The translations under genes and the position numbers were made by a program. Below are positions 1,308 to 50,396 of a DNA stretch of 64,000 bases, in pieces. The notes beneath the pieces are model-generated. The model did not search any database and was not told where the DNA came from. It saw nothing but the letters and a program-made list of their open reading frames with translations. Source of the DNA: an uncultured virus (IMG/VR IMGVR_UViG_3300021197_001482) (Duplodnaviria > Heunggongvirae > Uroviricota > Caudoviricetes); IMG/VR virus record IMGVR_UViG_3300021197_001482. The stretch is one strand, 5' to 3'. Every line of letters begins with the position of its first letter. Position 1 is the stretch's first letter.

Positions 1308-1325
1308 AAAAGTTAAACCTTTCGC
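1308..1325 (-). promoter_or_regulatory. Archaeal BRE/TATA promoter for a leaderless transcript
   Basis: Minus strand reads GCGAAAGGTTTAACTTTT about 25-35 nt upstream of the ATG at 1287. Confidence 0.45.
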
Positions 1326-1834
1326 TAATCCAGTGGATAACCACTGCTATCTACGCCCAATCGTTGTTCAATCGGATAGTTGGTATTTGGTTTGGGTTGA
1401 GGTTGTTCTTCTCCGGCCATAAATTGTTTAAAATGTTCCTGTGCGCTTAATTTTTCTTCTTGTTCACCACGAAGTTCAGCCGCATTCCTATCCCACTCTT
1501 GTATCATAGGTGTGGCTTTTTCGGGTATGGAAACCATATTATGATACATATTATGTATGTGCATTGAAAGAGGTTGCATTACCCTGTTCCATAAATCGTA
1601 ATCCCTATCGTCTGCAAAAAAATGTTGATTATCTAATTGCTGTTGTATTTTTTCTTCGGGAATGCCTCTTGCTCTAAGTGCCGCCGCATGTAATTTATCA
1701 AGCATTTCGTAGCCCATTTTACCTTCTGCGTTATCATCATATCCACCCAACATTAGATTTAATGAATGTGCGGCATTATGATGCCAGTCTTCTGTACCTT
1801 TTAGCAAAGTCCAAGCCTTTTGAAACGGTTGCAT
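1325..1834 (-). CDS. Hypothetical protein with FxxAWxLLK N-terminal leader
   Basis: Likely start MQPFQKAWTLLKG at 1834, just after the upstream gene's stop at 1839. Confidence 0.75.
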   Translation of the reverse strand: MQPFQKAWTLLKGTEDWHHNAAHSLNLMLGGYDDNAEGKMGYEMLDKLHAAALRARGIPEEKIQQQLDNQHFFADDRDYDLWNRVMQPLSMHIHNMYHNMVSIPEKATPMIQEWDRNAAELRGEQEEKLSAQEHFKQFMAGEEQPQPKPNTNYPIEQRLGVDSSGYPLD

Positions 1835-1838
1835 GTTA

Positions 1839-2498
1839 TCACTGCCCGCCGATAAATGGCGAAGGACTTCTTGCGGCTCTACCCTGCATACGAGGGGTGG
1901 CTCGTGGCTCATCTATTTGCCCACGCTTGGTTTTACGAGGTGTTTCTCTTATGTTTCTTGAAGCAATGTTATGCGCTTCGGGGTGTGCATCTGTAGGTAC
2001 GCTGTTAATTGGGTCAAAGTTTTCATCAAATGAATCAAAGAAAAGGTCTGTTGAGTTTTCTCGTTTACTATAATCGGTTTCCGGTTTCATTGCGGCTCGT
2101 CGGCCAGCACCGTCAGCAAACTGCGCTAATTGGTCTTCCACTCTACCTGCAAGTGGCTTAGGGAATGGGTTAAACGGTTCTATGTTTTGATTTATCCTAT
2201 CAATTAACTGCTGTTGTTGAGCAGGTGACGCATCATCATTAAAATCTAATTCTACCCCCGCATCATCTACATCATCCATACCGTACATGTTTGTTTGTTC
2301 CCTGTTCGATAGCCTACCTCTTGGGATTTCACCAGTGCTACCAGCACGACCAAGGTTTGCCGGAGGTTTAGTACTTCTCATAGGCGGCATACTTGGGCCA
2401 CCCATGCTTTCGTCATCGTCTTCTAAATTATAAAACTCTTTTTCGCTCATTGGTGCATTTTTCAAGAGCATCCAAGCGGCTTCAAAAGCAACGGACAT
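1839..2498 (-). CDS. Low-complexity, probably disordered protein with FxxAWxLLK leader
   Basis: Starts MSVAFEAAWMLLKN; acidic, Pro-rich body; TTAAATA about 25 nt upstream on the minus strand. Confidence 0.75.
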   Translation of the reverse strand: MSVAFEAAWMLLKNAPMSEKEFYNLEDDDESMGGPSMPPMRSTKPPANLGRAGSTGEIPRGRLSNREQTNMYGMDDVDDAGVELDFNDDASPAQQQQLIDRINQNIEPFNPFPKPLAGRVEDQLAQFADGAGRRAAMKPETDYSKRENSTDLFFDSFDENFDPINSVPTDAHPEAHNIASRNIRETPRKTKRGQIDEPRATPRMQGRAARSPSPFIGGQ

Positions 2499-2626
2499 AT
2501 GTAGCGTGAAGCGGATGAGATATTTAACGCTTAAGTAAAAGTTCGTGGTGCATAACCATCGTGTATGACATTAAAATAAAGGTGATAATACTAAAGGTCA
2601 AACCCGCCCAGTCCACCTTGTCCATT

Positions 2627-3364
2627 TTACCGTCTGCCGTAGGTCACACCACCGGGTACAGGAATGTGGGTATATTGGTCTAAAGTCTGTTGTTGAGCAT
2701 TACTGTAAGGAGTGCGAGTATTAGGTTCTTGGTACAAAGGCAATGCACCGGTATCGTATCGCAAATCGCCAAACTCACGAGGTGTTTCTTTAGGCGGATT
2801 TGCAATGTAATCTATATTGTCCGACCTACCAAAATTAACATCCGGTGTTCTTTTAATTGCATTTACAGGGTTAAACTGTTCGTGAAACGGTTGCGAGTTT
2901 ATGTTTCTCTCTTGCGACCGTAATTTACCGGTATCGTCAATAATGCTTTGCAACGCTCTACCGTACAAACCCTGTCTTCGAGCAGGTTGGACTAATTCAC
3001 TTTGAATAATACTACCATGATTAAATTGAGGGAATAGCGGGTCATTTAATGGAGGTTCAACAGATATTCTACCTGCAAGTTTTGGCCCTACTTTGACATT
3101 ATAACGGTCTTCTGTTTGACTTATTGGTGTTTTTGAAAGACGAGGGATGTATTGATTTAACTGTTGTTTAAATTGTTCTTTTTTATCAAGTTCTTTTCTG
3201 TGCCGCTGTTCGGCCTCTATTTCTAATCTTACTGGGTCACGAACTGTAGCGTTTGCAAAAAAATCGGGTAAATCACGAGTGTAGGAGAGCCACGATAGCG
3301 GGTCCAATCTTCTTTGCATTGTCGCCTTTAACAAGACCCATGCTGAATCAAATGGGCTTGACAT
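2627..3364 (-). CDS. Leader-tagged protein with probable GNAT acetyltransferase domain
   Basis: Starts MSSPFDSAWVLLKA; SELVQPARRQGLYGRAL resembles GNAT motif A, RNINSQPFH resembles motif B; PIP-like QQTLDQY near the C-terminus. Confidence 0.6.
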   Translation of the reverse strand: MSSPFDSAWVLLKATMQRRLDPLSWLSYTRDLPDFFANATVRDPVRLEIEAEQRHRKELDKKEQFKQQLNQYIPRLSKTPISQTEDRYNVKVGPKLAGRISVEPPLNDPLFPQFNHGSIIQSELVQPARRQGLYGRALQSIIDDTGKLRSQERNINSQPFHEQFNPVNAIKRTPDVNFGRSDNIDYIANPPKETPREFGDLRYDTGALPLYQEPNTRTPYSNAQQQTLDQYTHIPVPGGVTYGRR

Positions 3365-3369: not shown

Positions 3370-3693
3370 TCACTCTTGATTCGGGTCAATTCGTGGTAAG
3401 TTCATAACTTGTTCTAAGGTTAGTCTTTCTAATTGTTCGGGCGTTGCAGGTTTGAAACCGGGAGGTGGTTTGGGTTCATATTCATCATATTCTGCTGGTG
3501 GTGGCCCCCATTTTCGACTTAAACCTTCACTATTATAATAACTCCCTCCCATTGCATCTATTCGGTTTTCTGCATTCCACCACTCTTCACTACCTTCTTC
3601 ATGCTGGCTTTGATAGTGCCTTATCCACTCTATAGCGTCTTGTCGAGTAATACCTTTTAACAAAGTCCATGCATAATCAAAAGGACTTGTCAT
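3370..3693 (-). CDS. Small protein with FxxAWxLLK leader
   Basis: Starts MTSPFDYAWTLLKG after RBS AGGTGA. Confidence 0.75.
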   Translation of the reverse strand: MTSPFDYAWTLLKGITRQDAIEWIRHYQSQHEEGSEEWWNAENRIDAMGGSYYNSEGLSRKWGPPPAEYDEYEPKPPPGFKPATPEQLERLTLEQVMNLPRIDPNQE

Positions 3694-3704
3694 TTTAATC
3701 ACCT

Positions 3705-3804
3705 NNNNNNNNNNNNNNNNNNNNNNNNNNNNNNNNNNNNNNNNNNNNNNNNNNNNNNNNNNNNNNNNNNNNNNNNNNNNNNNNNNNNNNNNNNNNNNNN
3801 NNNN
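3705..3804. other. Assembly gap (100 N)
   Basis: Run of n. Confidence 1.
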
Positions 3805-3857: not shown

Positions 3858-4067
3858 GTGCTATGGGGGGTGCTATGGGGTATTTCTCCTTCTAAGGGGG
3901 TGCTATGGGGTCGTGCTATGGCCGCTGTACAGCGTTCTATAGACCGCACCCCGTCACTGTGCTATGGCCCCATAGCGGGCGGGCGGGTGGCGGGTGCGTG
4001 TCACGCTTGCCTTCTATAGACCGCCCCACTACGGGCCTGTATGCGGGCGAGTATAGCGTTCTATAGA
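3858..4067. repeat. Cluster of short repeats: GTGCTATGG x5 and palindromic TCTATAGA x3
   Basis: GTGCTATGG at 3858, 3870, 3900, 3913, 3959; TCTATAGA at 3936, 4013, 4060. Confidence 0.85.
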
Positions 4068-4220
4068 ATCCCACCACCGCTTTGCTACGCCCGCCCATAA
4101 CGCAACGCCCCGCTTGGGCGCACCCCCATGAATAGCGACCCTTGACCCAACCCATATGGGTGTATCACCCATCCATTACCTGCGCTATGTGCTGTGCGCT
4201 ATGGAGTCCTATTCGATGCA

Positions 4221-4254
4221 CTGAAGTCAAATCATATATAAATACTAAAAGAGA
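4221..4254 (+). promoter_or_regulatory. Viral promoter repeat, copy 1
   Basis: CTGAAGTCAAATCATATATAAATACTAAAAGAGA; TATA box about 25 nt upstream of the ATG at 4264. Confidence 0.8.
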
Positions 4255-4263
4255 TGCAAGACG

Positions 4264-5151
4264 ATGCCACAAAACAATGTATCAGCCCCAAGCCGTACCT
4301 ATGACCGCACCGCCCCTCGTGGCACACAGTTCACCCCTGTGTGTAATGATGTTCAGCAGTTCATGGACTCCACTCGCAAGAGTGTGTCCCTGCCTGTGAC
4401 CTTCAACCACTTCGGAATCATGGACTTCACATCCAACCCGCAGAAAGGCGACGACCGAACCGCTTGGACTCCGACCAAGTTCATGACTTACACACGAGCG
4501 CAACTCGTCAACCACTTCACGGACATGATTAGCACCTGCATGGAGCATTGCTCGGCCACCTTCTCTACACACATCCCCAACCGTAGCAAGTACTCCGCTA
4601 AGGACATCGCCGCCGCCCTCACATGGACATACACTGTGACGAAGGGCGTGAACAAAGGTGCTGTCCGTAACCACCTCGCACACTTTCAAGCGTCGGCTCG
4701 CAACACCATCAACCGCAACATGAAGGCCAACGACTTGAGTGAAGCCGTCGAGAACGGGGATGCGTGGATGGCCGAGGGAGTCGTTGATAAAGACGGCAAC
4801 CCAGTTCCGTATGTGAGTGAAGCGAAGGCCAAGAAAGCCCACGCTCGTAAGGCTCACGCTGATTTGGTCGAGGCTACCAAAGACGGCCCTGCAAAGAAGC
4901 GTGTGACTGGTGATTGGTACGAACCGAAGACTCGCAAGCAAGCGTACTTGGACAACGCTGTTGTCGCCTCGTACATGACTGAACTGGCCGTTTCGATGAC
5001 GACTCTTCGCACCATGCCCTCTATCCGTGTGCGACAACTCGCCATCAAAGCCGGTGCGCCCGCCTCCGTAACCACTGGCAAGGGTGCGACCAAGCGTTGC
5101 ATCGAGTGGTTCAGTGTTGATGTGGCTCGCATCACACTCGCCAACCGGTGA
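4264..5151 (+). CDS. Basic orphan protein, possibly the first-expressed gene
   Basis: 295-aa ORF with its own promoter and terminator; more C-ending codons than neighbouring genes. Confidence 0.8.
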   Translation: MPQNNVSAPSRTYDRTAPRGTQFTPVCNDVQQFMDSTRKSVSLPVTFNHFGIMDFTSNPQKGDDRTAWTPTKFMTYTRAQLVNHFTDMISTCMEHCSATFSTHIPNRSKYSAKDIAAALTWTYTVTKGVNKGAVRNHLAHFQASARNTINRNMKANDLSEAVENGDAWMAEGVVDKDGNPVPYVSEAKAKKAHARKAHADLVEATKDGPAKKRVTGDWYEPKTRKQAYLDNAVVASYMTELAVSMTTLRTMPSIRVRQLAIKAGAPASVTTGKGATKRCIEWFSVDVARITLANR

Positions 5152-5216
5152 GTCGCACTGACTGACTGACGCTCACCCCGCCCCCGCATAGGGGGTGGGT
5201 TCTCTTCGGAGTTGCC

Positions 5217-5260
5217 GCCCTCACTCACGCCTTGGCGTGGGTGGGGGCTTTTTTTATTTT
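5217..5260 (+). terminator. GC-rich hairpin followed by a T-tract
   Basis: GCCCTCACTCACGC-CTTG-GCGTGGGTGGGGGC (14-bp stem with G.U pairs) followed by TTTTTTTATTTT. Confidence 0.8.
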
Positions 5261-5770
5261 CAAATCCCCATAGCGGGCGTGAGTTGGGCCGATAAGCAAC
5301 ACAACTGCGCCCCCGCAATACGCTTGGCCTTGTTGTTCACCGTTACTTACACCCATATGGGTTGGGTTTTCTATGCCTCTTACTCATGCCCGCCTGTCTT
5401 AGAAAATAACTTCTCACTGTCCGAGCGAGAGCCGAACCCAGACCACCGTGGTATAAGCGGGCGGTTGGTTTCAGTGGGCGAGGCTCGATGCAGTAGTAAG
5501 TAATCACTTACTCACTTACCTATACAAGTGGATGAATTATGAGTGCTAAAGTAAAACCCACACCGGTCATAGTAGTCATAGTAGTCACCATTATGTTCAC
5601 GCTTTTGACTCGCATTACAAATGTCATTACTCATAGGGTACTACTCTCAATATAATAAGTAAGTATAGGTATAGTAATAATGACTATTGTAACGCCAGTC
5701 AAATCCGTGACTCGTATCGTGAACATTATGAATAACATGACCCGTATAATTCGATGATGAAAACGGTGGA

Positions 5771-5804
5771 CTGAAAGCAAATCATATATAAATACTAAAA
5801 GAAA
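5771..5804 (+). promoter_or_regulatory. Viral promoter repeat, copy 2
   Basis: CTGAAAGCAAATCATATATAAATACTAAAAGAAA upstream of the ATG at 5814. Confidence 0.8.
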
Positions 5805-5813
5805 AGGAAGTCG

Positions 5814-6050
5814 ATGCCGAACCACAGAATAAGCAATACTCCCTTACCTCACAGGGTACATGTACTGGGACAGATAACATACAAACATGCCGACTACTTC
5901 GATACTTGGTGCGATGAAATGAATGAGATGGGCTACGATGTAGTCGAGTATGATGGTGGCATTTACGAGCAACTCATACATACTCCACACGGCACAGAAG
6001 TATGGTGCTATCCTCATTGGCAAATCGTCAAGCGAGAGGTGGTAGCATGA
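5814..6050 (+). CDS. Hypothetical protein
   Basis: Follows a promoter copy; ends KREVVA in a repeated junction. Confidence 0.7.
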   Translation: MPNHRISNTPLPHRVHVLGQITYKHADYFDTWCDEMNEMGYDVVEYDGGIYEQLIHTPHGTEVWCYPHWQIVKREVVA

Positions 6051-9825: not shown

Positions 9826-11110
9826 TATGGGAAAAAGAAGTAAGAAAATACGCAAGCAAAACAAGAACGCAAAGAAACAATTGACGGTGAAGCCAATGAA
9901 AAAGACTACTGTTTATGGCGGGTGGGTTGACAAGAGCAACTGCCACACAGGACACAACCTCATATTCAAAACCGTTGATGGTATCGAAGTGTGGGCCGGT
10001 GGTAAGAATCGTGCAGGTGGTTGGCACTTGATGAACCCACTACCGCAGTTGGCTATGGGGCCGAGCGAGACTCTTGGTTCATACACTGTCGGTAGCAAAA
10101 CCAAAGTGCCGGAGGGTTGGTCGTGCGAACAGCACCTTGACAACTCCACTCCACCACTCATGCTGTCGTTTGATTGGCCGGACTATTCTATACCCAAGGT
10201 CAACAAATACTTTTGGTACGCTGTCATTGATGACATCCGTGAGCATGGTATCAAGACTGTGAGTACACAGTGTGCCGGAGGTCATGGTCGCACTGGTGTT
10301 CAGTTGGCTATCCTTGCATACTTACTTGGCACAGAAGACGAGCGAGCCGCTTGGCCCGACGCAGGTGTGTTGATTGATTGGGTGCGTGAGCAACACTGTA
10401 CCCACGCTGTCGAGGCTAAGTCTCAACAAGAATACATCGCAGATGTATGCGACATCCCTATTGGTGAAGACAAAGTTCACGCCCCAGCATACAGTGGTTA
10501 CTCTTGGGGTGGTGGTGGTTCGGGAAAAGTAACACAGACTACTGGCACAGATAGTCCGTTCACCAAGGGTACGGGTAAGTTCGACGGCTTGTTCATTGAC
10601 TACCAAGGTGCTGATTGGTGTCCACACTGTGAACACATACCTGCCAAGGGATTCATTATCAATGGTGACAAATGCCCCAAGTGTGGTAAAGACCCACAGC
10701 ATCCACCATCAAGTAAGGATGAACAGACATTACTCTTACCTGTTTCCGATGACATATGGGAATCACCTTGCGAGGCATGTGGTAGTGCGAATGTTATTGA
10801 TGACGAGTGCCTTGACTGTGGCTACGATGATACAGTAATATGGGATGATGATATACCTTGCTCGTCTTGCGGTGATGAATACAATTTTACACAGATGCAA
10901 GGTGGTGTTTGCTTCCCTTGTTTGTTTCAAGAGAAGTCATTACCCAAGGGCGACCTGTCGGTGAAACAAATAGGTGTTGTTACAAGGATGAAGGTCAAGT
11001 GCGTAGTAACCAACACCATGCAATACTCGTCTTTCATCAAACGATTCGATGAGAAGGCAAATGGATTTGTCAGTTACAAAGGTGACATGAAGAAGGAAGT
11101 GAAACAATGA
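9818..11110 (+). CDS. PTP/dual-specificity-family phosphatase with C-terminal Zn-ribbon repeats
   Basis: FDWPDY (WPD loop), QCAGGHGRTG (CX5R), VEAKSQQEYI (Q-loop); several CxxC pairs downstream. Confidence 0.85.
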   Translation: MNDMGKRSKKIRKQNKNAKKQLTVKPMKKTTVYGGWVDKSNCHTGHNLIFKTVDGIEVWAGGKNRAGGWHLMNPLPQLAMGPSETLGSYTVGSKTKVPEGWSCEQHLDNSTPPLMLSFDWPDYSIPKVNKYFWYAVIDDIREHGIKTVSTQCAGGHGRTGVQLAILAYLLGTEDERAAWPDAGVLIDWVREQHCTHAVEAKSQQEYIADVCDIPIGEDKVHAPAYSGYSWGGGGSGKVTQTTGTDSPFTKGTGKFDGLFIDYQGADWCPHCEHIPAKGFIINGDKCPKCGKDPQHPPSSKDEQTLLLPVSDDIWESPCEACGSANVIDDECLDCGYDDTVIWDDDIPCSSCGDEYNFTQMQGGVCFPCLFQEKSLPKGDLSVKQIGVVTRMKVKCVVTNTMQYSSFIKRFDEKANGFVSYKGDMKKEVKQ

Positions 11111-14038: not shown

Positions 14039-14058
14039 TATATAAATACCAAAAGAAA
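14031..14058 (+). promoter_or_regulatory. Viral promoter repeat, copy 4
   Basis: ACAAATGATATATAAATACCAAAAGAAA. Confidence 0.8.
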
Positions 14059-39703: not shown

Positions 39704-40376
39704 TAGCAACGAAAGAGGTTCACTGTGTGAATCTATTGAGCGTAAAGCGAAGAAGGCCGGTCTTACTGTCGTAAGACAAACATTGGTGGTAGGCGACTAT
39801 CAATTAGGCGGTGCTTTAGTTGAGGCTAAAAGTATTCCCGACCTGTTTCAGTCGTCACACTCCGGCCACCTGTGGAGACAACTCGACAATATGGATGCGA
39901 ACTTTGAACGGTTCTTTCTTGTCATACACGGCTCGATAGAAAAGTATGTTACTATGGCAAAACGCAACGGTAAGAAGGTAAGTTACTCCAAGGTGCAAAG
40001 TGAACTGACGGGTACTATCGCTCGCATAATGAGTGATTTTGAATGCCAAGTTTTCTTCACACCCGATGTAAGTAGTGCGGCTCTTTTCATAGTAAAATTA
40101 CACGACAAGTTACACAAACCAGCGAGCAAGCATGGGGCGCAATCAATCCGCAGGGTAGCAAGTAACGACTTACGCTTGGACATGATAATGACTGTTCCGG
40201 GTGTAGGGCGTGAAGTAGCGGAACGCCTCTTAGAATCATGCGGTAACATAGAAGAAATGTGCTTTCCCGAATCACTTAAGCAAATCAAAGGCTTAGGCGA
40301 AGTAAGAAGAAAATTACTTATTAAAATACTTACAAGTGAAGACCCTGTAAAGCAAGAAAGAAAGGTCAAACGGTAA
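39681..40376 (+). CDS. ERCC4/XPF-family structure-specific nuclease with HhH motifs
   Basis: IIDSNE, GDY, VEAKS..DL..S, VPGVG and IKGLG HhH motifs. Confidence 0.85.
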   Translation: MKPDLIIDSNERGSLCESIERKAKKAGLTVVRQTLVVGDYQLGGALVEAKSIPDLFQSSHSGHLWRQLDNMDANFERFFLVIHGSIEKYVTMAKRNGKKVSYSKVQSELTGTIARIMSDFECQVFFTPDVSSAALFIVKLHDKLHKPASKHGAQSIRRVASNDLRLDMIMTVPGVGREVAERLLESCGNIEEMCFPESLKQIKGLGEVRRKLLIKILTSEDPVKQERKVKR

Positions 40377-41817: not shown

Positions 41818-42419
41818 GTGACATAATGGCATTGGATATTGAAACAGGTAACTACTCGTGGGAAATCGGAGGATGGGATAAGACCGCCTCCTTTGAGCCT
41901 ACAGTGGTTGCTACATGGAACGGCAACGATGGGACAGTGTATTGTAACAAGTCACTTGACATTGATGCCACAGTGAAAGAACTTCACCCTCGTACACTGG
42001 GTGAGGACTTAGCAAAGCATGTTGCTGGCGGTGGCGTTGTCATCGGTCATAACATCAAAGGATTCGATTTACCTGTACTGCGTGATGCACTTGACTGTTG
42101 GACAGCCGGTGACATACTCGGTAAAGCCGATGCGGTCATTGACACGAAGCACTTGGTACAGAAGGCGGCAACTGCCGTTGGTAAGGTATCAACAACACTG
42201 GGAATGCTGACAAAGACCACTTTAGAGGACAATAAACTTATGAACAGTGAGGATGCCCCCTTAGCATGGAGAGCAGGTAAGTTTGACGAGGTAGCAAAAT
42301 ACTGCCTTAGCGATGCTCAATTAACATTCGACTTGTATCAATTTGGAAAGAGTGAAGGCTATATCAAATCAAGACAATTAGATACAGGCGAAATAGTAAA
42401 AATAGAAGTGGAATGGTAG
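41814..42419 (+). CDS. DnaQ/RNase H-like 3'-5' exonuclease
   Basis: [23 protein letters not shown]. Confidence 0.8.
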
Positions 42420-42421
42420 AC

Positions 42422-43924
42422 ATGACGGAGATTGAAAGTACAAAAAGTAAAGCACAGATACACAACATACGGGCGGCAAAGACGGTAGCAGATACCGTCA
42501 AATCAACGCTTGGCCCTATGGGAATGGACAAACTGATGGTTGATGGTGGAGGCGGTGTTATCGTTACAAACGATGGTGCTACTATCCTGCGTGAACTTGA
42601 TGTATCACACCCCGGTGGTAAAATGATTGTTGAAGTAGCAAAGACTCAAGAAAACCTGTGCTATGACGGTACAACGAGTACTGTCATTCTTGCAGGTCAA
42701 CTTCTTGGTAACAGTGAAACGCTGTTTGAGAAGGGATTGCACCCTAATGTGATTTGCCGTGGTTATCACGAGGCATCTCAAATGGCTATTGAATACCTTC
42801 GTACCAACATATCACTGACAAGTGATAAGCGTGATGTACTGGTATCGGTGGCTAAAACTGCTATCACTGGTAAAGCACTTGAAAACTCACTTAATGCTGT
42901 TGCTGAACTTTGCGTAGCCGCTGTTGAAAAAGCCGGTGATGCTGAAAGCGTCAAGGTTGTTTCATTCCCCGGTGGCTCGCTTGATGACTCCTACCTTTAC
43001 GAAGGTTCGATTGTAAACAAGGACTATGTGCTTGAAGGTAAGGATGCTTACTATAATGTAGTGTTGTTGAATACCGGTCTTGAGAATGAAAAGAGTGAAG
43101 ACAATGTACAGGTACAACTTGATGCTCAATCATTCCAATCATACAAATCATCGGGTAAGGCAAACCTCATCTCAACGGCTAAATTACTTGTGAAAGCATT
43201 ACCGAATGGTGGTGTTGTTTTTGTCCGTGATGCGGTCAACGACCATGTATGCGCTCATCTCAAGAAGCATAACATCATGGTCGCTCGTAGAGTACCCGAA
43301 TCAACACTACGCTCATTGAGTAGAGTTACAGGTGCTACTATCTATCAAACACCCGAAGAGGTAGAAGGACACACAGAATGTACCGTAGAGCGACAGAAGC
43401 ACAACGATGTTTGGTATCTCTTCGTTCAAGGTGATGTCAAGAGTGATGAGGCAACACTCGTGCTAAGGGGTGCAACCTCTCACACGCTTGAAGAAGTTGA
43501 GCGTGGGTTTGATGATGCACTCGGTGTAGTTTCTTTAGTGTTAAAGAACGGCAACTTTGTTGTTGGTGGTGGAAACGCATACGCTCGTATGTCGGCTCAC
43601 CTACGCCAACATGCGGCACAGATAGGTGGTAGAGCGCAGATGGCAATAGAAGCCTTTGCAGACGCATTAGAGTGTATTCCTGCCACTATTGCCGAGAATG
43701 CGGGGCATGACCCACTCGACACCGTACTTGCTATTCGCCATGAAATCCTACAGGGCAACCGTGAAATCGGACCGGATGTACATAACGGAGGCGTATGTAA
43801 TATGATGGAACTTGGTGTTTACGAACCTACGGAACTGGTTCGTCAAGCAGTATTAAGTGCGAGTGAAGTCACTAATTCAATACTCCGTATTGATGACATT
43901 ATAGCAAGAAGGCAAGCCCAATGA
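42422..43924 (+). CDS. ths: Group II chaperonin (thermosome subunit)
   Basis: [37 protein letters not shown]. Confidence 0.95.
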
Positions 43925-44231: not shown

Positions 44232-45134
44232 TCAAAAGGTATATCTACAAACTATTGGGCCTGTACTGCTAAGAGCATCAGCATGAACCGGCGCAACAAA
44301 TAATTTTGTTCCATCGGAGTTCCAATCAAAACCTCCAATAAAAGTAGATTGCGTTGAAGAAAGTTGCCCTACATCATCATTAACGCTCATTGAACGAGTG
44401 AATGAAGCAGTTGATACATTAAAACCAGTGCTAAGGTCAAACTCGGCTATTTTAGGATGATTTGCACTTGCCGAAGCAGGATTACCTGCCGAGTTTCTGT
44501 AAGAGATAAACATTTTAGTTCCGGCAGGATTGAATCGAATACCAGTATAGTTGGTTATATTGTCGCCGTCATCATCTGTGGTTGAACTCAAATTAGCAGT
44601 TGATTTACTACCCGCACTTAAATCCCATGCGGTGTTTAGAGTAAGCGTAATTACTGAACTACCATCTGCTACAAACAATTTAGTTCCTGTGTCGTTAAAC
44701 GCTAAACCCTGCGCCCCCGAACTATACAAAGAAGAATTGACAGTTTGGGTTGAACCAGTAGTACCAATATCATATGCCGTTGAAAGAGCATAACGCACGA
44801 TATTAGTAGAAGCATTTGTTCCACCAATATAGATATAATTTCCGCTATCACCAAACACTATTGCTCTACTGCTATTGTTACCTATATTAAGTGTATCATC
44901 TGCTGATGAAAAACTGGGAACGGCACTATCATCAAAACTATATGACTTAATAGATGATGACGAATAAACTGCTAAAAGTAGTTCATCCGGCCCATTTACT
45001 AATTCAGTAAGGACAGTACCAGTTGCCGAACCAGTGCTTGAAAGTGCAAGACCATCTAAAGTATAAGCGGGTGCTGTTGTAGCATTAGCCTTTTGTTCAG
45101 CACAAGAACCTGCAATAGCATTATACAAACTCAT
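44232..45134 (-). CDS. Beta-propeller repeat protein, probable receptor-binding/tail-associated
   Basis: Repeats of the type FNxxGTK(L/M)F...LSTA(Y/W)D(I/L). Confidence 0.7.
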   Translation of the reverse strand: MSLYNAIAGSCAEQKANATTAPAYTLDGLALSSTGSATGTVLTELVNGPDELLLAVYSSSSIKSYSFDDSAVPSFSSADDTLNIGNNSSRAIVFGDSGNYIYIGGTNASTNIVRYALSTAYDIGTTGSTQTVNSSLYSSGAQGLAFNDTGTKLFVADGSSVITLTLNTAWDLSAGSKSTANLSSTTDDDGDNITNYTGIRFNPAGTKMFISYRNSAGNPASASANHPKIAEFDLSTGFNVSTASFTRSMSVNDDVGQLSSTQSTFIGGFDWNSDGTKLFVAPVHADALSSTGPIVCRYTF

Positions 45135-47683
45135 ACCCCCAAAACAACATAATCAGTTCCAGTTGAAATACAAGTAACACCATTACGAGCCGCAACAGCA
45201 ATATCAGTTTGCGCCCCGTTCATGTTATCACCACTACTACTATTCGTTCCAGTTCGTAGTGTAAAACCATTACCGTCATTATTGATAATAGTAAAATGGA
45301 CACCTGCACCTTGATTGTCGGGGATTGTAATAACAATACTACTCCCTGTAACAAAAACATAGTTACCTGCATGGGTGGCTTCGGATAAAGTAGTAGAAGC
45401 AGTTAAAGCGACAACAGGTAGTCTCCTTGAAACAAAAGTTTTACCTGTGGCAACAGTAACGCTACCCGCTAATGCGAGAGTTGCTTCTCCTTCAACTGCG
45501 GATATTGCATCGGAATCGGCATAGGCAGTAGCACTTGCGGCAATACCGTTCAACTTACTGTGGTCTGCGTCAGTAAATACATTGGAGTCCGTTGCCGCTT
45601 CAACAGCCGCCCTTATCTCCGCATCCGTTTGGTCGGCGGTTGCTGACGCTTCGATAGCATCCAATTTGTTTTTGAGAGTGGTAGTGAAGTTCTTTTGAGT
45701 AAGCCCGCCATCTCCAACTGTATATGTCGTGTTGGTGTCCGTTGCACTAATTGTACCATCGCCCGCAATAGCCACATTCGTTCCCGCAGTTAAAGCGGCG
45801 ACAACATTCGTAGTATCAGTCACATCTGCTGATGCCTCTATACCGTTCAATTTAGTATGGTCTGCATCTGTAAACACATTTGAATCGCTTGCCGCTTCTA
45901 CTGCGGCTCGGATTTCAGCATTGGATTGGTCGGCGGTTGCACTGGCCTCTATACCATTCAATTTACTGTGGTCTGCATCAGTGAATACATTAGAATCAGT
46001 TGCCGCTTCTACTGCGGCTCGGATTTCAGCATTGGATTGGTCGGCGGTTGCACTGGCCTCTATACCGTTCAATTTAGTATGGTCTGCATCTGTAAACACA
46101 TTTGAATCGCTTGCCGCCTCAACCGCCGCCCTTATTTCTGCATCGGTTTGGTCTGCCGTTGCGCTTGCTTCTATAGCGTTTAATTTACTGTGGTCGGCAT
46201 TAGTAAAATCATTAGTTGTTAAAGAACCATCAGCAACTCCAAGTAAAGTTCGCAGGTTTGCCGCCGTTAATTCAGCAGGGGCCGCCGCACTCCCACTTAT
46301 GTTTCCTAATACTCTATCATCAGCGATGTTTGCTATCTTAGCAAGGGTGACATTGGAGTTGGCTATTGCCGCTGTCTTTACTTCACCAGCACCTATCTGT
46401 TCTTCTTCTATTGCATCAGCGGCAATGTGTTCTGTATCTACAGCACCGTCAGCAATCTTAGCCGAAGTCACAGCATCAGCGGCTATCTGTGGAGTATCAA
46501 TAGTATCATCAAACAGAAGTGCAAAGGTTGGGTAAGAGGCATGACTTGTAGTGCATATAAAACTCGCAAAGGTAGCAGGTGCAATTTCATAATAAGAAGC
46601 CATCGTGCTTGAGGCTGATGAGGTGAGTGCAAATCGCACATAATCATCAGTGTCCAAGTTTCTAATGTATATGATATATCCAGCAGGGAACGAGCCGTTT
46701 GTTATCACATTTGTACTCGCAGTAGGGGTGAGGATGAGTGCATTAGCATCGGTTGATTTAATTGTTATAGTTGCATCAGCACTGGTTAATACACGGTCGA
46801 AGACTGAGCGGGTGAATCGTGCGGCGTGTGTACCGCTGTAATACAATACATCTTTGTTGTCATCGGGTACAGTGCTACCGGTCACAGCCGCACCGAATGA
46901 TTGCCACATTGCACCAAAGCGTGATGCACCTAAAGCACCATTACCTATCCCACTATGAAAAGCGTCAAGGTCAAGCAGTTCATCGGTTGATGCTACATCA
47001 CCACTTGTTACTGGTGAAAAATACATAGGCGATGGTCGGATGAACACACGCTTGTCATTTACTTCTGTGATTACCAACTTAAGGTCATCACCTCCGCTTG
47101 CAAATGCAACACGCAATACAGCAAGAACGACTGTTTGAGTGTTTGCTAATGCGCTACTACCTGTTGCAGTAGGTGTGTTAAGGAATGAAGTAGGAGTAGC
47201 AGGGTAACTGTTTGTACCGGCAGTAGTAGCAGTTCCCAATTCCCAATAAATATTTTTAACAGTAGAAGTATTATCAGCGGAAACATACACTACAACTAAT
47301 GCTTCTTTACCACTGGTAAGAGCAGTAGGCGAGCCAGCCGCACTTGCACTACTTGTGTTAAGAGTGTAAGTTGTTGTTGCACCTACACCACCTGCGAACT
47401 CATACATGATACCATCAAGTACAGCATAACCTCCTTTTACAGTAAAAGTAGTTCCACTTGCGTAGTTGACAGCACCGGGTATATTTGCAGGAATGTTTCT
47501 ATCACCTTCACCACCCGATGTATCATCGTACATGATGACACCATTACCATGAATACCCTCAACCATGTTGGTGAGTGTGGGTGACAGGATATGGTCGCCA
47601 TCACCTAAACCATCAACATTCGTTGCTGTCGCCACTGTTAAGTTATGATTTGTATGCCCCGAAGTTGGATTACCGTTTCCCAT
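45131..47683 (-). CDS. Tail fibre protein
   Basis: IADxAVTxAK repeats, 37-aa KLNGIEASATADQ repeats, C-terminal beta-sandwich-like tip. Confidence 0.8.
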   Translation of the reverse strand: MGNGNPTSGHTNHNLTVATATNVDGLGDGDHILSPTLTNMVEGIHGNGVIMYDDTSGGEGDRNIPANIPGAVNYASGTTFTVKGGYAVLDGIMYEFAGGVGATTTYTLNTSSASAAGSPTALTSGKEALVVVYVSADNTSTVKNIYWELGTATTAGTNSYPATPTSFLNTPTATGSSALANTQTVVLAVLRVAFASGGDDLKLVITEVNDKRVFIRPSPMYFSPVTSGDVASTDELLDLDAFHSGIGNGALGASRFGAMWQSFGAAVTGSTVPDDNKDVLYYSGTHAARFTRSVFDRVLTSADATITIKSTDANALILTPTASTNVITNGSFPAGYIIYIRNLDTDDYVRFALTSSASSTMASYYEIAPATFASFICTTSHASYPTFALLFDDTIDTPQIAADAVTSAKIADGAVDTEHIAADAIEEEQIGAGEVKTAAIANSNVTLAKIANIADDRVLGNISGSAAAPAELTAANLRTLLGVADGSLTTNDFTNADHSKLNAIEASATADQTDAEIRAAVEAASDSNVFTDADHTKLNGIEASATADQSNAEIRAAVEAATDSNVFTDADHSKLNGIEASATADQSNAEIRAAVEAASDSNVFTDADHTKLNGIEASADVTDTTNVVAALTAGTNVAIAGDGTISATDTNTTYTVGDGGLTQKNFTTTLKNKLDAIEASATADQTDAEIRAAVEAATDSNVFTDADHSKLNGIAASATAYADSDAISAVEGEATLALAGSVTVATGKTFVSRRLPVVALTASTTLSEATHAGNYVFVTGSSIVITIPDNQGAGVHFTIINNDGNGFTLRTGTNSSSGDNMNGAQTDIAVAARNGVTCISTGTDYVVLGV
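45545..46205 (-). repeat. 111-bp (37-aa) coding tandem repeats, three in tandem plus one displaced copy
   Basis: IEASATADQ(T/S)(D/N)AEIRAAVEAA(S/T)DSNVFTDADH(T/S)KLNG. Confidence 0.9.
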
Positions 47684-47684
47684 T

Positions 47685-48029
47685 CTATGCCACCTCTATG
47701 AGTATTTCAATGTTAATTTCATTTGCCGATGTCTTGATAATCGGTTTTGTCGTATAACGAGCGACAGGTGTGAAGTCGGAGGTGGTGCGATTCTGTATGT
47801 ACACCTCACGGATGCTATCAGTGAATGTGTTATCAATACTCATTGATGCCTCGATGAGTAGAGCAGTGTCGTCAATAATCGTCACTGTTGGCGTGAGAAC
47901 GATTGCAGGGCGACCCGCCGCACCATCCTCCGCAGTAGCCGGTGTTCCGTCGAAACCTACCACTACTTCGTTGATTGTATCAGCGATAGTTTGTAGAAGC
48001 AAACGGCGTATGTGATTTGATACAGGCAT
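47685..48029 (-). CDS. Probable baseplate/tail-fibre attachment protein
   Basis: Start MPVSNH after GGAGA; IREVYI...VARYT pattern; tail context. Confidence 0.5.
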   Translation of the reverse strand: MPVSNHIRRLLLQTIADTINEVVVGFDGTPATAEDGAAGRPAIVLTPTVTIIDDTALLIEASMSIDNTFTDSIREVYIQNRTTSDFTPVARYTTKPIIKTSANEINIEILIEVA

Positions 48030-48030
48030 G

Positions 48031-49449
48031 TCAATATCTCCTAATCTCGGTCTTATTCGCACCTATCGGCAACCCTTCGCCGCCAATTTTGCCTCTTGTC
48101 TTCGTGCCTTTAACCCCTCCGATTAAGAAGGCGGTAGTATGAACACCACGCTCGGTTACTTGAGAAGTGATACGCAATTCAATTTTACCAAACATGGATA
48201 AGTTTTCTTCGACAATTTGTACATAGGTAAGCGGTGCTTCTCCACTGGAAACAGCGGTTGCCCCTTCACTAATGCCTTGCAGTACACCTTCTATACCCGA
48301 CTCGATATTAAGCATAGTAAGGTCGGTAACACCTACTATCGGCATATGTCTTGCTTCTGTGATGACACGAGTTTGCCCGTCATACTCAATCGTCATACCC
48401 GGTCGCATGTCAGTGATGCCGGGATGACCGCTACTGCTGATTGCACCCGCTGTAAGTGTATGACCTCGTAGGATTTGACGAGCGACTCTTCTTGCTCCAT
48501 TAGTTGAGCGCACTGTCATATCTACGACTGGTGCTGGTTCTTCTCGTATCTCACCGTTGTTACCGCTTTGTCTTTCAGTGTCATCAACAGTAACGATAAC
48601 CAAGTCATTCAATGCCATTGGCTGACCTTGTACAGTGACACGGTTTGGTGTATTATCCACAGGGTCAGTTCGCTTAGAACCAAAACGGATATTGGCGTTT
48701 ACACTACGAGTGGCTTCACTGAATGTGATAGGAACATACAACATGTTACCGAATCTGTCTATCAGTATCATGCGGCTGTCATGCCGACCGATAAACCGTA
48801 GTGCGGTCATCAAGTTGACATTTGTAAAGTCTTGACCGAGGAAGCGAGTAGAGTGAAGTCTTCGACCGTTGTTGTTGTTTGCGGAACTCATACTGCGACC
48901 AATGTTAAAACTATTCATACTGGTAGTTGCTTGCTGACCTAAACGGATAGCCATATCTGTTGTTCGCAAACCAACATCAATTGGTTGACCCAACTTAACT
49001 TCACGCTCAAAGAAACCAATGTCGTTAAGTGTTTTTCCTTTCATGTTTTGTAGATTCATTAGAATACCTACCGTACTCGATTCAAGTGTTGAGATAGATA
49101 AGCGTTGGGCGGAGTTGTCGGCATTGTAAACAAGCATGGGTTTGTTGGTTGAACTCAATACATTGTCGCCCAAAAACGGCACTGCGGTGCTACTATGCCC
49201 CGGTGTTTCTTTATGTGTGATTTGAATTGACGACTCACCTTCAACGATTTGATAGCGGGTTTCGGGCATGACTTGGAAAGTAGAAGCATTACTATTTTCA
49301 ATGGTAACTTTCGCCTGTACACCTGTACTGGTGTCCACCTTTGCATGATGAACGGCGTTATCAACAAATACTGGCTTACGCACATGGTCCATCACTGCGG
49401 GCATATCAGTACTAAACCGACCAACAACTGTATTCTTTATGACAGTCAT
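48031..49449 (-). CDS. Probable tail/baseplate hub-like structural protein
   Basis: IDRFGNMLYVP, NRVTVQG, ARRVARQIL, DMRPGMTI patterns resembling hub proteins; tail context. Confidence 0.5.
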   Translation of the reverse strand: MTVIKNTVVGRFSTDMPAVMDHVRKPVFVDNAVHHAKVDTSTGVQAKVTIENSNASTFQVMPETRYQIVEGESSIQITHKETPGHSSTAVPFLGDNVLSSTNKPMLVYNADNSAQRLSISTLESSTVGILMNLQNMKGKTLNDIGFFEREVKLGQPIDVGLRTTDMAIRLGQQATTSMNSFNIGRSMSSANNNNGRRLHSTRFLGQDFTNVNLMTALRFIGRHDSRMILIDRFGNMLYVPITFSEATRSVNANIRFGSKRTDPVDNTPNRVTVQGQPMALNDLVIVTVDDTERQSGNNGEIREEPAPVVDMTVRSTNGARRVARQILRGHTLTAGAISSSGHPGITDMRPGMTIEYDGQTRVITEARHMPIVGVTDLTMLNIESGIEGVLQGISEGATAVSSGEAPLTYVQIVEENLSMFGKIELRITSQVTERGVHTTAFLIGGVKGTKTRGKIGGEGLPIGANKTEIRRY

Positions 49450-50051
49450 TCTCCCCTCGCCCCCCATGTCCCTTGTCCTTCACCTGTGTAATTATAAGGA
49501 AGTTGAGTCAAGTATTGCGGGGGTATGTGTTGCTCAACAAAGCCTTCTGCGGGTTCACCCATATATCCTTTGTTTCTAAATTGACCTTGCAATTGTTGAG
49601 TTGGTATTCTCACTCCGATTTGTTTTCGCCCTTCTAATTCCGTAAAAGCGTGAGAAAGTTGTTTTTGTTTGTCAGTCATTTCACCTGTAGGATAAAACCA
49701 ATTGCCTTTTTTCTCTTCATGAATATCAAACGGTTTAACATCGGTGTCCACTCCACTTTCCTTGTTATCTATTCCATCGCTTTCCCATTGCTCACTTGAT
49801 TGAGTAGGTATTTGTGGTTTTAATCCCTCTTGAATCAATTTTTCATACGGTTGAAACTCGTCGGGGTTAAAATCATTATGAGTAGCGTAACCTGCATCAA
49901 TTGTTTTTAACCAGTCATCCCCCCATTCTTGTACAGGATGAAACCTTCGCATCGTCACCGGCCCATACGAACTTGGAAAGTCGGGATGAAACTCACCCAG
50001 TTCGGATTGGCGTGATGCCTTGAGAAAACGCCAAGCCTTCTCAAATATCAT
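49446..50051 (-). CDS. Leader-tagged probable ADP-ribosyltransferase (Tpt1/KptA-like ART fold)
   Basis: Starts MIFEKAWRFLKA; RRFH, LIQEGLKP, GNWFYP, IGVRIP, EGFVEQHIPPQYL. Confidence 0.55.
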   Translation of the reverse strand: MIFEKAWRFLKASRQSELGEFHPDFPSSYGPVTMRRFHPVQEWGDDWLKTIDAGYATHNDFNPDEFQPYEKLIQEGLKPQIPTQSSEQWESDGIDNKESGVDTDVKPFDIHEEKKGNWFYPTGEMTDKQKQLSHAFTELEGRKQIGVRIPTQQLQGQFRNKGYMGEPAEGFVEQHIPPQYLTQLPYNYTGEGQGTWGARGE

Positions 50052-50060
50052 ATCAAGCCC

Positions 50061-50396
50061 TCAACAGTTCCATCGTTTCAAAGATGCTCCCTTTGGTGTG
50101 AGTTTACCCTTTTTACTGGTAGCACCTTTCATACCACTCATACGAGCGCAGAATGATTTACGACGCTTGGCCTTTTTTGAGCCGGGTTTGAGTTTACTTG
50201 GCTTGGTTGTCACCGGGGGTTTGAGATTTGCGCCACTCTTACGCTTGGCGGCGGCACGACCCTTAGCGTTCAGTCCACCTTTTGGGCTGTGCTTATTTGG
50301 GTTATAACCGTGAAATGGTTTTTCCTTCTTAGCCTTCATCAAAGCGAATGCGTTCTCCATTGGTGTACAACAATTACAAAAGTCGTATTCAATCAT
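50061..50396 (-). CDS. Highly basic DUF6321-like protein with a degenerate leader
   Basis: GGLNAKGR...NLKPPV...RRKSFCARM...LKRWNC; N-terminal TPMENAFALMKA. Confidence 0.7.
   Translation of the reverse strand: MIEYDFCNCCTPMENAFALMKAKKEKPFHGYNPNKHSPKGGLNAKGRAAAKRKSGANLKPPVTTKPSKLKPGSKKAKRRKSFCARMSGMKGATSKKGKLTPKGASLKRWNC

Follow-up and report, generated by a model that had tools for sequence, protein, structure and literature searches.

One short peptide, or tag, is carried by otherwise dissimilar proteins in the magrovirus-like 64 kb window (the whole stretch of DNA analysed, 64,000 nt, from an ocean archaeal virus) and in related virus genomes. The scaffold protein that these viruses encode has a similar helix, and, judged on that likeness, the tag most likely loads its bearers into the virus head. 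What we establish is that the motif exists, where it sits in proteins, that it is confined to viruses, that selection acts on the peptide and that its cargo is diverse, along with a helix that is predicted to lead into a flexible linker and a match between tag and scaffold. To the reading that the tag is a portable, position-independent docking helix tying accessory proteins to head assembly, in the manner of the T4 capsid-targeting sequence (CTS), we assign a probability of about 0.5.

A shared peptide at the start of five window genes

A six-frame scan of the window for AWx[LF]LK gave five matches, all within the first 13 residues of minus-strand open reading frames (ORFs) with ATG starts at 1834, 2498, 3364, 3693 and 50051. 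Scan and translations confirm the common N-terminal motif that an earlier note on this DNA had reported for five proteins, with the consensus start M-x(1-3)-[F]-x-x-A-W-x-[LF]-L-K. Relaxing the pattern brings in MENAFALMK at 50360 together with two junk matches, at 30477 and 40301 (the latter with a stop codon inside). With a tag PSSM, the genes at 2498, 3364, 3693 and 50051 score 27.5 to 33.5 bits and the next-best window position after the tagged genes -0.5 bits; the 1834 gene was left out of this scoring, its ORF (1325-1912) being absent from the gene calls.

Features of the window:
290..1132, minus strand: HMGL-like gene, placed after the tandem tag cluster in the window and in relatives G002, G003 and G005
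1325..1834, minus strand: tagged gene 1, 169 aa; tag MQPFQKAWTLLK at 1799-1834; orthologue in L060
1839..2498, minus strand: tagged gene 2, 219 aa; tag MSVAFEAAWMLLK at 2460-2498; PSSM 31.5 bits
2627..3364, minus strand: tagged gene 3, 245 aa; tag MSSPFDSAWVLLK at 3326-3364; PSSM 33.5 bits
3365..3375, minus strand: Shine-Dalgarno-like GTGATTAAA upstream of gene 3; again at 3694-3704, upstream of gene 4
3370..3693, minus strand: tagged gene 4, 107 aa; tag MTSPFDYAWTLLK at 3655-3693; PSSM 27.9 bits
17039..17701, plus strand: 220-aa protein of the replication module; N-terminal PMDLAMAHIR at nt 17048-17077; PSSM -0.8 bits, which is background
42413..43924: virus-encoded thermosome-type group II chaperonin
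45131..47683, minus strand: tail-fibre-like protein (phrog_21412, PHROG tail fibre, E 9.7e-69); same strand as the tags
49446..50051, minus strand: tagged gene 5, 201 aa; tag MIFEKAWRFLK at 50019-50051; PSSM 27.5 bits
50061..50396, minus strand: basic DUF6321 protein, 111 aa, pI 10.5; degenerate tag PMENAFALMK at residues 12-21 (nt 50334-50363); PSSM 15.8 bits
50393..63949, minus strand: giant 4518-aa ORF directly upstream of the DUF6321 gene; no Pfam match

Two degenerate copies had also been proposed. The one in the DUF6321 gene holds, and DUF6321 proteins of relatives bear the full tag (L018); the one in the 17039 gene does not rise above background, while its orthologue in G003 is tagged, starting MTIHDAWAFLK (57% identity over 124 aa). 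The ATG of the DUF6321 gene overlaps the stop codon of the 4518-aa ORF, in whose place relatives hold ORFs of 3702 to 5516 aa. A 100-N gap starts 11 nt upstream of the gene 4 ATG.

Likeness ends at the Lys, as claimed: 76 aligned N-termini never vary at A, W or K and are at least 90% conserved at F and the second L, with no consensus beyond K. A small residue does follow the Lys in the window (G, N, A, G, A), as had been said, yet the rule does not extend further; across 190 non-redundant instances this position is A (22%), E (14%) or N (11%), with Q, G, S and M next in frequency, and Pro, Asp, Glu and Gln are enriched downstream. The upstream DNA said to be shared by genes 3 and 4 is present as GTGATTAAA-ATG-NCAAGNCCNTTTGATT, so that ribosome-binding site and leader are common to both.

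Cargo diversity and virus restriction

The 105 distinct tagged proteins from related IMG/VR contigs fall by BLASTP into 66 unrelated cargo clusters, the largest with seven members, meaning that some are true paralogues. Pfam cut-offs are passed only by DUF6321 (four proteins) and NUDIX (one). The GNAT-like, weakly supported ADP-ribosyltransferase (ART)-like, NUDIX and DUF6321 folds differ from one another, and the two window cargos modelled with AF2 (genes 3 and 5) are predicted to adopt different folds, bearing out the earlier description of the cargo as unrelated. The gene 1 cargo has no Pfam or PHROG match, and that of gene 2 is polar-rich and acidic (pI 4.8).

A GNAT, an ART and a kinase had been named among the cargos. 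The gene 3 model (mean pLDDT 68.7) has a helix at residues 4-19, a low-confidence stretch at 20-40 and then a GNAT-like domain; its top Foldseek matches are nearly all GNATs (six of six at E <= 0.001), although scores are weak (best E 2.4e-4, TM 0.25-0.44) and Pfam gives no match. In the gene 5 model (mean pLDDT 87.3), the tag helix (residues 2-13) is followed by a low-confidence segment. ART-fold chains head its VIA list, all weak at Z <5 (best DarT1 8baq_A, Z 4.8, rmsd 3.4 over 101 residues; KptA Z 4.7), but Foldseek returns nothing at E <= 0.001. No kinase was found; the 17039 protein has no Pfam match.

The AWxLLK DNA pattern gives 29 matches in five related genomes and the reversed pattern none. 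An ATG lies at most four codons upstream of PFxxAWxLLK in 51 of 99 distinct IMG/VR matches; cellular genomes show this in 5 of 56 (Fisher p 3.5e-8). The motif heads a gene-like ORF in 47 viral matches against 0 cellular ones. The cellular genomes amount to 596 Gb; their 56 distinct matches are at about chance level and none is gene-like, in keeping with a virus-restricted motif. All synonymous codons occur at the tag P, A, L, L and K, and this freedom at conserved residues supports selection on the peptide. We found no published description of the tag in the literature.

Position, copy number and helix properties

The tag had been thought strictly N-terminal; it is not. For a sister form, T-G-E-P-M-D-I-A-[FMWY]-[RQ]-L-L-K, which often recurs within one protein, 120 of 130 cases are internal to long ORFs, where at least 60 open codons upstream imply that 'GEP' is translated. 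It stands at C-termini, at most 12 residues from the stop codon, in 24 of 95 cases. 'Leader' is thus too narrow a name. A further motif is present in 51 of the 130 ORFs with the internal form, and many tagged proteins carry two to four copies (four in G003 51813-54695); in one G003 gene the four internal copies are nearly identical in DNA. Two or more motifs occur in 20 of the 39 best HMM matches, a set skewed to multi-motif proteins because their scores add up.

A tag helix is predicted in both AF2 models. The amphipathicity claimed for it is seen as a modest moment, not clearly above 2000 shuffles per tag (fraction reaching the observed moment 0.04 to 0.36). Sec/Tat and class III signal peptides, which have a hydrophobic core of about 7 to 20 residues or a twin-arginine motif, were rejected: the tag is only 9 to 10 residues long, with 4 or 5 hydrophobic, and polar or acidic sequence follows.

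Link to head assembly and the scaffold match

Relatives encode an S78 prohead protease-scaffold (PF04586, E 2.4e-9, 38 bits against a cut-off of 21; PHROG head maturation protease) and an HK97-like shell protein (Pfam SU10_MCP, PHROG major head protein). In four proteomes, all 28 strict-pattern tags lie on the structural-gene strand, substantiating the proposed tie to that strand and to a genome with this protease. The six stronger window copies are likewise all on the minus strand, as stated earlier, like the tail-fibre gene and the 4518-aa ORF. The morphogenesis block (terminase, portal, S78 protease-scaffold and capsid genes) has the tandem tag clusters immediately upstream; in further contigs, genes bearing the tag lie between terminase and portal-side genes or adjoin head or neck genes, and the Pelagibacter phage HTVC131P has a DUF6321 homologue between its scaffold and capsid genes. 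Tagged genes also occur in the replication module (G003 19748-20416, window 17039, G005 13602-14432).

The pattern [ILMFV][DE]xA[WFYM]x[LIVM][LIVMFY]K, widened after the scaffold site had been seen (Y allowed at the last hydrophobic place), matches 31 times in the four proteomes, whereas shuffled proteomes average 0.115 matches and never exceed 2. These are the 28 tags and three prohead protease-scaffold proteins, with no other protein; the three scaffold sites are orthologous and so count as one event. With the unwidened PSSM, the scaffold site earns a low score (0.2 bits in G002, beyond the top 32 in G003). The site forms a conserved helix, D-[IV]-E-x-A-Y-x-V-[YF]-K-A-A, that does not vary among 23 scaffolds sharing 55 to 97% identity and is present in G006, the window's close relative. 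Candidate cleavage sites are AYEVYK-AA in the scaffold and ELLK-AD in the capsid protein, where E-L-L-K-A-D is invariant at residues 31-36.

A proposed portable docking helix and its alternatives

We propose that P-[FM]-[DE]-x-A-[WFMY]-x-[LF]-L-K is a short helix that would work anywhere in a protein to mark accessory proteins for head assembly in archaeal tailed viruses of the magrovirus type. It would copy the conserved helix of the prohead protease-scaffold, and so would share that helix's binding partner, whether the major capsid protein (on its inner face) or the scaffold. Proteins so tagged, whether GNAT-like, ART-like, NUDIX, basic DUF6321/DUF5872 or one of the many of unknown kind, would then co-assemble into the procapsid, and the S78 protease may afterwards cleave at the motif or next to it. 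Recombination at the shared ribosome-binding-site and leader cassette could give the tag to new cargo genes, and gene fusions could leave tags at C-termini or between modules. Binding, encapsidation, cleavage and delivery into the host are steps that we infer. The archaeal-virus, T4-like tag on interchangeable cargo envisaged by the earlier note keeps its shared peptide, virus restriction and structural link; it loses the strict N-terminal location and the kinase, and its amphipathicity is modest.

Against a capsid destination, position independence suits any docking motif, the apparent scaffold match depends on a pattern widened post hoc and on one orthologous event, the modelled cargo fold calls are weak, a few tagged genes lie in the replication module and amphipathicity is not clearly above shuffled controls. 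The tag might instead dock on a hub outside the capsid, such as the viral chaperonin or a host protein, its cargo acting unpackaged in the infected cell. N-terminal, C-terminal and internal sites are typical of short linear motifs, a thermosome-type chaperonin is encoded in four of four genomes, and the replication-module genes would fit. Excerpts of PMC10052503 say that T4 propeptides recruit chaperonins, and a title cited there has the N-terminus of a T4 head protein directing proteins to GroEL. We nevertheless think such a hub unlikely: the 596 Gb of cellular genomes yielded no host counterpart, tags strongly favour the strand and modules of the structural genes, and the scaffold match would be left unexplained.

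Less probable still is a motif that serves as a processing signal only, a junction cut by the S78 prohead protease or another, with no targeting role. HK97, the type S78 system, has a protease that cuts after a Lys; an S78 protease is encoded here, the capsid protein has its invariant E-L-L-K-A-D and the scaffold a similar site, and motifs are strung between modules in the multi-copy proteins, although the best HMM matches are skewed to these. However, cutting at the copies next to stop codons would free almost nothing, the residue after K shows no clear preference, and the conserved part is predicted helical, whereas protease substrates usually bind in extended form.

That the conserved element acts as DNA or RNA, as a translation-initiation or recombination cassette with the peptide a by-product, is very improbable. 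The sequence common to genes 3 and 4, the near-identical DNA of the four G003 copies and an ATG that, in the internal form, always follows AGG[CT]GA-like bases speak for it; synonymous variation, the open frame upstream of GEPM forms and the GGC at about half of the listed Gly codons, which weakens the Shine-Dalgarno match, speak against. Genuine paralogues exist, as in the seven-member cluster, but an ordinary paralogous family is ruled out as an account of the full set (105 proteins in 66 clusters, no whole-length homology), and with differing folds, no consensus after K and about 0 matches in reversed and shuffled controls, paralogy or a chance match is scarcely credible.

Comparison with known systems

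Encapsulin cargo-loading peptides are short, portable and found at either terminus, and dock unrelated cargo inside an HK97-fold shell. The tag is similarly a position-flexible short peptide on diverse cargo, beside an HK97-like shell. Encapsulin peptides belong to cellular nanocompartments and those reported are not F-x-x-x-W-x-x-L helices, whereas the tag is viral and its capsid binding a proposal. In the C-terminal tail of the HK97 protease and the C-terminal helices of P22 scaffolding protein, a short helix binds coat protein and is enough for encapsidation. The tag likewise corresponds to a conserved scaffold helix, but the HK97 and P22 elements are not known to be copied onto dozens of unrelated accessory proteins. 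Staphylococcus phage 80alpha has an N-terminal motif common to capsid and scaffold, removed by the host protease Prp, that mimics ribosomal protein L27. It too is a short sequence on unrelated proteins; unlike this copy of a host protein, the tag has no host counterpart that we found in 596 Gb of cellular genomes.

T4 Alt has ADP-ribosyltransferase-type activity, and one cargo here is ART-like by a weak fold match; as in T4, a prohead protease is encoded and small, basic, Lys-rich cargo (DUF6321) is present. In contrast to the T4 gp21 system, the virus is archaeal and its protease-scaffold of the S78 (HK97) type. The tag is set apart from the T4 CTS in sequence (judged without alignment) and in being also internal, C-terminal and multi-copy; its packaging and cleavage are proposals. 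According to excerpts of PMC3012670, T-even internal proteins are diverse and share only their CTS; in T4 (IPI-III, Alt) as here, a short peptide is the sole feature common to diverse, fast-changing small proteins. Parts of PMC10052503 describe T4 propeptides as directing proteins into the core of the prohead, and the giant phages SPN3US and phiKZ as having many head proteins with removable N-terminal regions, several cuts per protein being possible; these propeptides span 20 to 254 residues and share only an A-X-E cleavage motif. Here, by contrast, proteins share a helix of about ten residues, and no A-X-E rule was seen.

Implications for magroviruses

Magroviruses infect a dominant group of ocean archaea; they are abundant and uncultured, and the majority of their genes lack a known function. 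An address tag lets one functional class, proteins bound for one place, probably the capsid, be recognised from sequence alone. It also marks where these genomes change fastest: between the window and a close relative, tagged cargos are 45 to 90% identical and a neighbouring gene 97%. If the tag does load capsids, protein packaging by an archaeal tailed virus would become testable without a cultured host, as would what magroviruses inject and whether scaffold mimicry is a general route of cargo loading in HK97-fold shells. The tag could also become a small packaging tag for engineered protein shells.

More tentatively, we suggest a plug-and-play code, in which a scaffold-derived ten-residue helix at the N-terminus, at the C-terminus or between modules would load a fast-evolving set of more than 60 unrelated families (acetyltransferase-like, ADP-ribosyltransferase-like, NUDIX and histone-like basic proteins), some in multi-module precursors, into an HK97-type capsid for delivery into Poseidoniales cells. 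If true, the code would be the first signal for packaging cargo to be known in archaeal viruses, and would make a viral counterpart to the targeting peptides of encapsulins.

Distribution of the tag in the window

A six-frame scan for AWx[LF]LK returned five copies, each no more than 13 residues from the ATG of a minus-strand ORF (named here by start position). We refer to this short peptide, P-[FM]-[DE]-x-A-[WFMY]-x-[LF]-L-K in its general form, as the tag, and to the remainder of each tagged protein as its cargo. The seven translations listed in an earlier note on this DNA were all confirmed, as was the ribosome-binding site plus leader DNA common to the 3364 and 3693 genes. For ranking, a position-specific scoring matrix (PSSM) was built from 181 instances; it is a ranking aid only, because A, W and K are fixed by the regular expression that gathered those instances. 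Genes 2498, 3364, 3693 and 50051 score 27.5 to 33.5 bits, with the 1834 gene left unscored. Two degenerate copies had also been proposed. That of the DUF6321 gene (50061–50396; PMENAFALMK) stands at 15.8 bits, the next-best window position scoring −0.5; that of the plus-strand 17039 gene scores −0.8 bits, equal to background. The 17039 protein is an orthologue of a protein starting MTIHDAWAFLK in the related genome G003.

Pfam and PHROG scans place a replication block on the plus strand, with minus-strand genes on its flanks. We take this gene content, partly from abstracts, to match that of magroviruses, which are tailed viruses infecting archaea of Marine Group II.

Features of the window (Pfam/PHROG assignments unless stated)
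290–1132, minus: HMGL-like (DRE-TIM lyase) gene, untagged
Starts at 1834, 2498, 3364, 3693 and 50051, minus: genes with AWx[LF]LK
3705–3804 and 15117–15216: runs of exactly 100 N each
9818–11110 and 22776–23240, plus: two tyrosine or dual-specificity phosphatase-like proteins in the replication block (weak Pfam matches, mostly below cut-offs)
11465–14038, plus: SNF2 helicase
16541–17017, plus: Myb-like DNA-binding domain protein (Pfam E 1.8e-7)
24583–25104, plus: pyrimidine-dimer DNA glycosylase homologue (Pfam E 1.1e-7)
28875–29822, plus: RFC-like AAA+ protein
33087–35480, plus: family B DNA polymerase
36957–37991, plus: PD-(D/E)XK nuclease
39621–40376, plus: ERCC4 nuclease
42413–43924, plus: group II chaperonin (E 1.2e-125)
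45131–47683, minus: tail-fibre-like protein
50393–63949, minus: giant 4518-aa ORF, open to the window end, without a Pfam match

The first N run starts 11 nt upstream of the start codon (ATG) of tagged gene 3370–3693, and the contig of a close relative (G006) terminates at the same place. Many other related contigs end within the tag cluster (L003, L006, L010, L011, L023, L044, L057, L069 and L075); such ends could stem from assemblies breaking at repeated leaders, from a hypervariable island or from the true end of the genome. At the divergent junction between tag cluster and replication block (4001–6000), G+C is 0.51 versus 0.41 in the flanks and the ORFs look non-coding. Scans of the window for tRNAs and Rfam families, this stretch included, found none.

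Unrelated cargos behind a common N terminus

N-tagged proteins were gathered by rules (ATG at most 5 codons from the motif, a stop in view, a length of 50 aa or more, no X and no more than 45 open codons upstream) that require ATG, so GTG and TTG starts are absent from the set. Clustering the parts after the Lys (single linkage, BLASTP E 1e-3) divides the 105 distinct complete proteins into 66 clusters, which bears out the earlier proposal that the cargos are unrelated rather than ordinary paralogues. Pfam places 100 of the 105 in no family above cut-off, the other five being four DUF6321 proteins and one NUDIX protein; for the tagged genes of the window, PHROGs gave only DUF6321-type families of unknown function. 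Cargos of the window and G006 share 45 to 90% identity, and their HMGL-like genes 97%.

An alignment of 76 N-termini (81 selected, less four in which the tag begins at the Met itself and one apparent chance match) has the consensus MxPFDxAWxLLK, with none beyond the Lys. Its profile, run against 1.84 billion representative proteins, retrieves 39 at E ≤ 0.001. The motif falls within the first 20 residues in 35 of the 39, and 20 of the 39 have at least two motifs, a count biased upwards, since the scores of multiple motifs sum.

Two cargos were modelled. For gene 2627–3364 there are 61 homologues, each unnamed or annotated as 'hypothetical' (46 aligned with the query, near-duplicates and fragments left out). 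Its model is composed of a tag helix (residues 4–19), a low-confidence segment (20–40) and a domain whose Foldseek matches are nearly all GNAT acetyltransferases (6 of 6 at E ≤ 0.001), the matches being weak (E from 2.4e-4, TM 0.25–0.44). Gene 49446–50051 (57 homologues, 48 aligned) gives a model of pLDDT 87.3, with the tag helix at residues 2–13 and no Foldseek match at E ≤ 0.001. A structural search against representatives yields mainly ADP-ribosyltransferase (ART)-fold chains, all with Z below 5, the best being 8baq_A (Z 4.8, rmsd 3.4 over 101 residues). Among the cargo types first suggested, GNAT for 2627–3364 and ART for 49446–50051 are plausible from these predicted folds, and the DUF6321 gene product (pI 10.5) fits a basic DNA-binding-like protein; the suggested kinase found no support. 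Marine phages, pelagiphages and cyanophages among them, commonly encode DUF5872 and DUF6321, both of which are small and very basic domains; in PHROG families, DUF6321 also forms the C-terminal end of 336 to 928-aa proteins.

Every synonymous codon occurs at the conserved P, A, L, L and K, so it is the peptide that is under selection. Ala is the commonest residue after the Lys (22%), Pro is 3.6-fold enriched at +3, and D, E, Q and P stay over-represented out to +8, a composition that reads as a helix stop and then a flexible linker rather than a well-defined cleavage consensus. F, W and the second L fall at i, i+4 and i+7. The p53 helix that inserts into MDM2 has this hydrophobic spacing, a likeness we offer as analogy only. 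The proposed amphipathic helix gained no clear support: for the five window tags, the hydrophobic moment is not clearly above that of shuffles, 0.04 to 0.36 of which reach the observed value.

Restriction to viruses

A DNA pattern for P-F-x-x-A-W-x-L-L-K, without a start codon and with the Phe codon fixed as TTT, matches 117 loci in IMG/VR (99 distinct matches), 72 of the 117 having BLASTX matches to four reference proteomes. There is an ATG at most 4 codons upstream in 51 of the 99, and 47 of those 51 also start an ORF that is closed upstream and at least 50 aa long. A near-identical pattern applied to 596 Gb of species-representative cellular genomes matches 57 loci (56 distinct), approximately the chance expectation; a nearby ATG is present in 5 of 56 and a gene-like ORF in none (Fisher p 3.5e-8 versus IMG/VR). 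No cellular record in that search is titled Poseidoniales. Matches at chance level, none of them gene-like, agree with the earlier expectation of a virus-restricted motif. In five related genomes, AWxLLK gives 29 matches versus 0 for the reversed pattern.

Literature searches (magroviruses, Magrovirales or Marine Group II; capsid targeting, propeptide or cargo; the literal hexapeptides) found no published account of the motif, subscription papers and supplements being outside their scope; the parts of PMC11706807 reached by term look-up hold no description of it.

The tag is a position-independent module

The earlier note described an N-terminal leader, a description that proves too narrow: the motif also occurs inside proteins and at C-termini.

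Features of related genomes and contigs
G003 51813–54695: 960-aa protein with four copies of G-E-P-M-[DNH]-I-A-F-Q-L-L-K
G005 95668–97008: N-terminal tag plus C-terminal copy
Contigs L026 and L069: DUF5872-[motif]-DUF6321 or a similar two-domain basic protein
G003 51813–54695 and 46924–47982, P0011 and P0012: phrog_6437 module
G003 48947–49795 and G002 1548–2405: HMGL-like gene, untagged
G005 85970–87430 and G002 102301–103437: P-M-x-D-A-W-S-S-L-[LM]-K variant
L121 (G003) 9425–9775 and 15967–17331: second shared peptide

Scanning for G-E-P-M-x-x-A-x-x-L-L-K, which leaves the aromatic position free, found at least 137 loci. Among the matches listed there are 135 distinct G-E-P-M instances, of which 130 fill the free position with F, M, W or Y; a further motif is present in 51 of 130 ORFs, the G is preceded by [IFV]-x-T, the protein ends at most 12 residues after the Lys in 24 of the 95 instances with a visible stop, and magrovirus homologues are present for 63 of the 66 loci that reach 2.5 kb. 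At least 60 open codons lie upstream in 120 of 130 instances (among the matches listed), so we rejected 'GEP' as an untranslated ribosome-binding site before internal copies.

A single cargo may follow either form, the 'MTPEEME' module being N-tagged in contig L040 and placed behind an internal copy in L062. Because copies also occur inside proteins, with the same cargo after either form, the tag is a position-independent module and not a leader only. Internal copies retain an ATG and AGG[CT]GA-like bases, and from this sequence feature may have a second role as internal start sites. The phrog_6437 module (~70 aa, K-S-P-E-A-x-x-H-K-x-E-Y-D...) always comes directly after an internal tag and at the C-terminus of multi-tag proteins.

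Tagged genes and the head module

Three complete genomes of 101 to 116 kb were compared (G002, G003 and G005). In all three, 5 to 9 tagged genes form a tandem cluster on the morphogenesis strand, directly upstream of the HMGL-like gene, which is followed by a block encoding terminase, portal, a ~1900-aa protein, an S78 protease-scaffold and the major capsid protein; directly after a giant ORF there are one or two more tagged genes. The layout of tag cluster, HMGL-like gene and giant ORF is the same in the window. On other contigs, tagged genes sit between the large terminase and a portal-side gene, or amid head/neck genes.

In every genome examined, the HMGL-like gene comes immediately 3' of the tandem tag cluster. 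At the position of the window's giant ORF, relatives carry ORFs of 3702 to 5516 aa, then tagged genes. A variant longer by one residue, P-M-x-D-A-W-S-S-L-[LM]-K, is internal to a protein of 378 to 486 aa whose gene precedes terminase by a few genes.

Pfam Peptidase_S78 covers the N-terminal half of the protease-scaffold, and the C-terminal part is long and helical. The protein carries D-[IV]-E-x-A-Y-x-V-[YF]-K-A-A, a patch that is invariant across 23 sequences with identities of 55 to 97%. The pattern [ILMFV][DE]xA[WFYM]x[LIVM][LIVMFY]K, widened after the site was seen, has 31 matches in four proteomes (shuffled proteomes: mean 0.115, maximum 2). Tags account for 28; the other 3 are the scaffold site in G002, G003 and G005, orthologous and hence one event. 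The site is also found in G006 and in G004, another related virus. Only the widened expression singles out the scaffold; the PSSM does not, scoring the site weakly (0.2 bits and rank 20 of 33,797 positions in G002, outside the top 32 in G003).

The capsid protein has an invariant E-L-L-K-A-D (residues 31–36), and A-Y-E-[ML]-L-K occurs close to the start of a small head-module protein; both are candidate processing sites only. PDB sequence searches returned a single weak match for the capsid protein (6j3q_A, E 0.006, residues 199–315) and none for the protease-scaffold. Complex prediction with capsid protein, protease-scaffold and a 32-residue tagged N-terminus gave 0.01 against a mark of 0.32, and weighs neither way on binding. 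A DUF6321 homologue in Pelagibacter phage HTVC131P sits between the scaffold and capsid genes.

A second peptide is shared within the head module. The protease-scaffold C-terminus, M-S-W-D-E-V-H-x-L-A (M441, W443, V446 and H447 invariant), recurs as E-M-S-W-D-D-I-H-D-M-A in a 116-aa protein, close to its C-terminal end; the gene of this protein lies between those of portal and the ~1900-aa protein. The shared peptide may be the tail by which the scaffold itself binds the capsid.

A proposed role in procapsid loading

We read the tag, with a probability of about 0.5, as a portable docking helix that would copy the scaffold helix and in this way bring accessory proteins into the procapsid, perhaps with trimming of the tag by the protease. 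Its proposed action is akin to that of the T4 capsid-targeting sequence, which is strictly N-terminal whereas the tag is not, and to that of encapsulin targeting peptides, which work as cargo-docking signals. The HK97 protease cuts after Lys. Removal of a 102-residue scaffold domain in the HK97 system is described in PMC12749128.

In the strongest competing explanation, the tag would dock its cargo to a different hub, the viral chaperonin or else some host protein. Position independence fits such a hub as well as it fits docking in the capsid; we nonetheless judge the hub unlikely.
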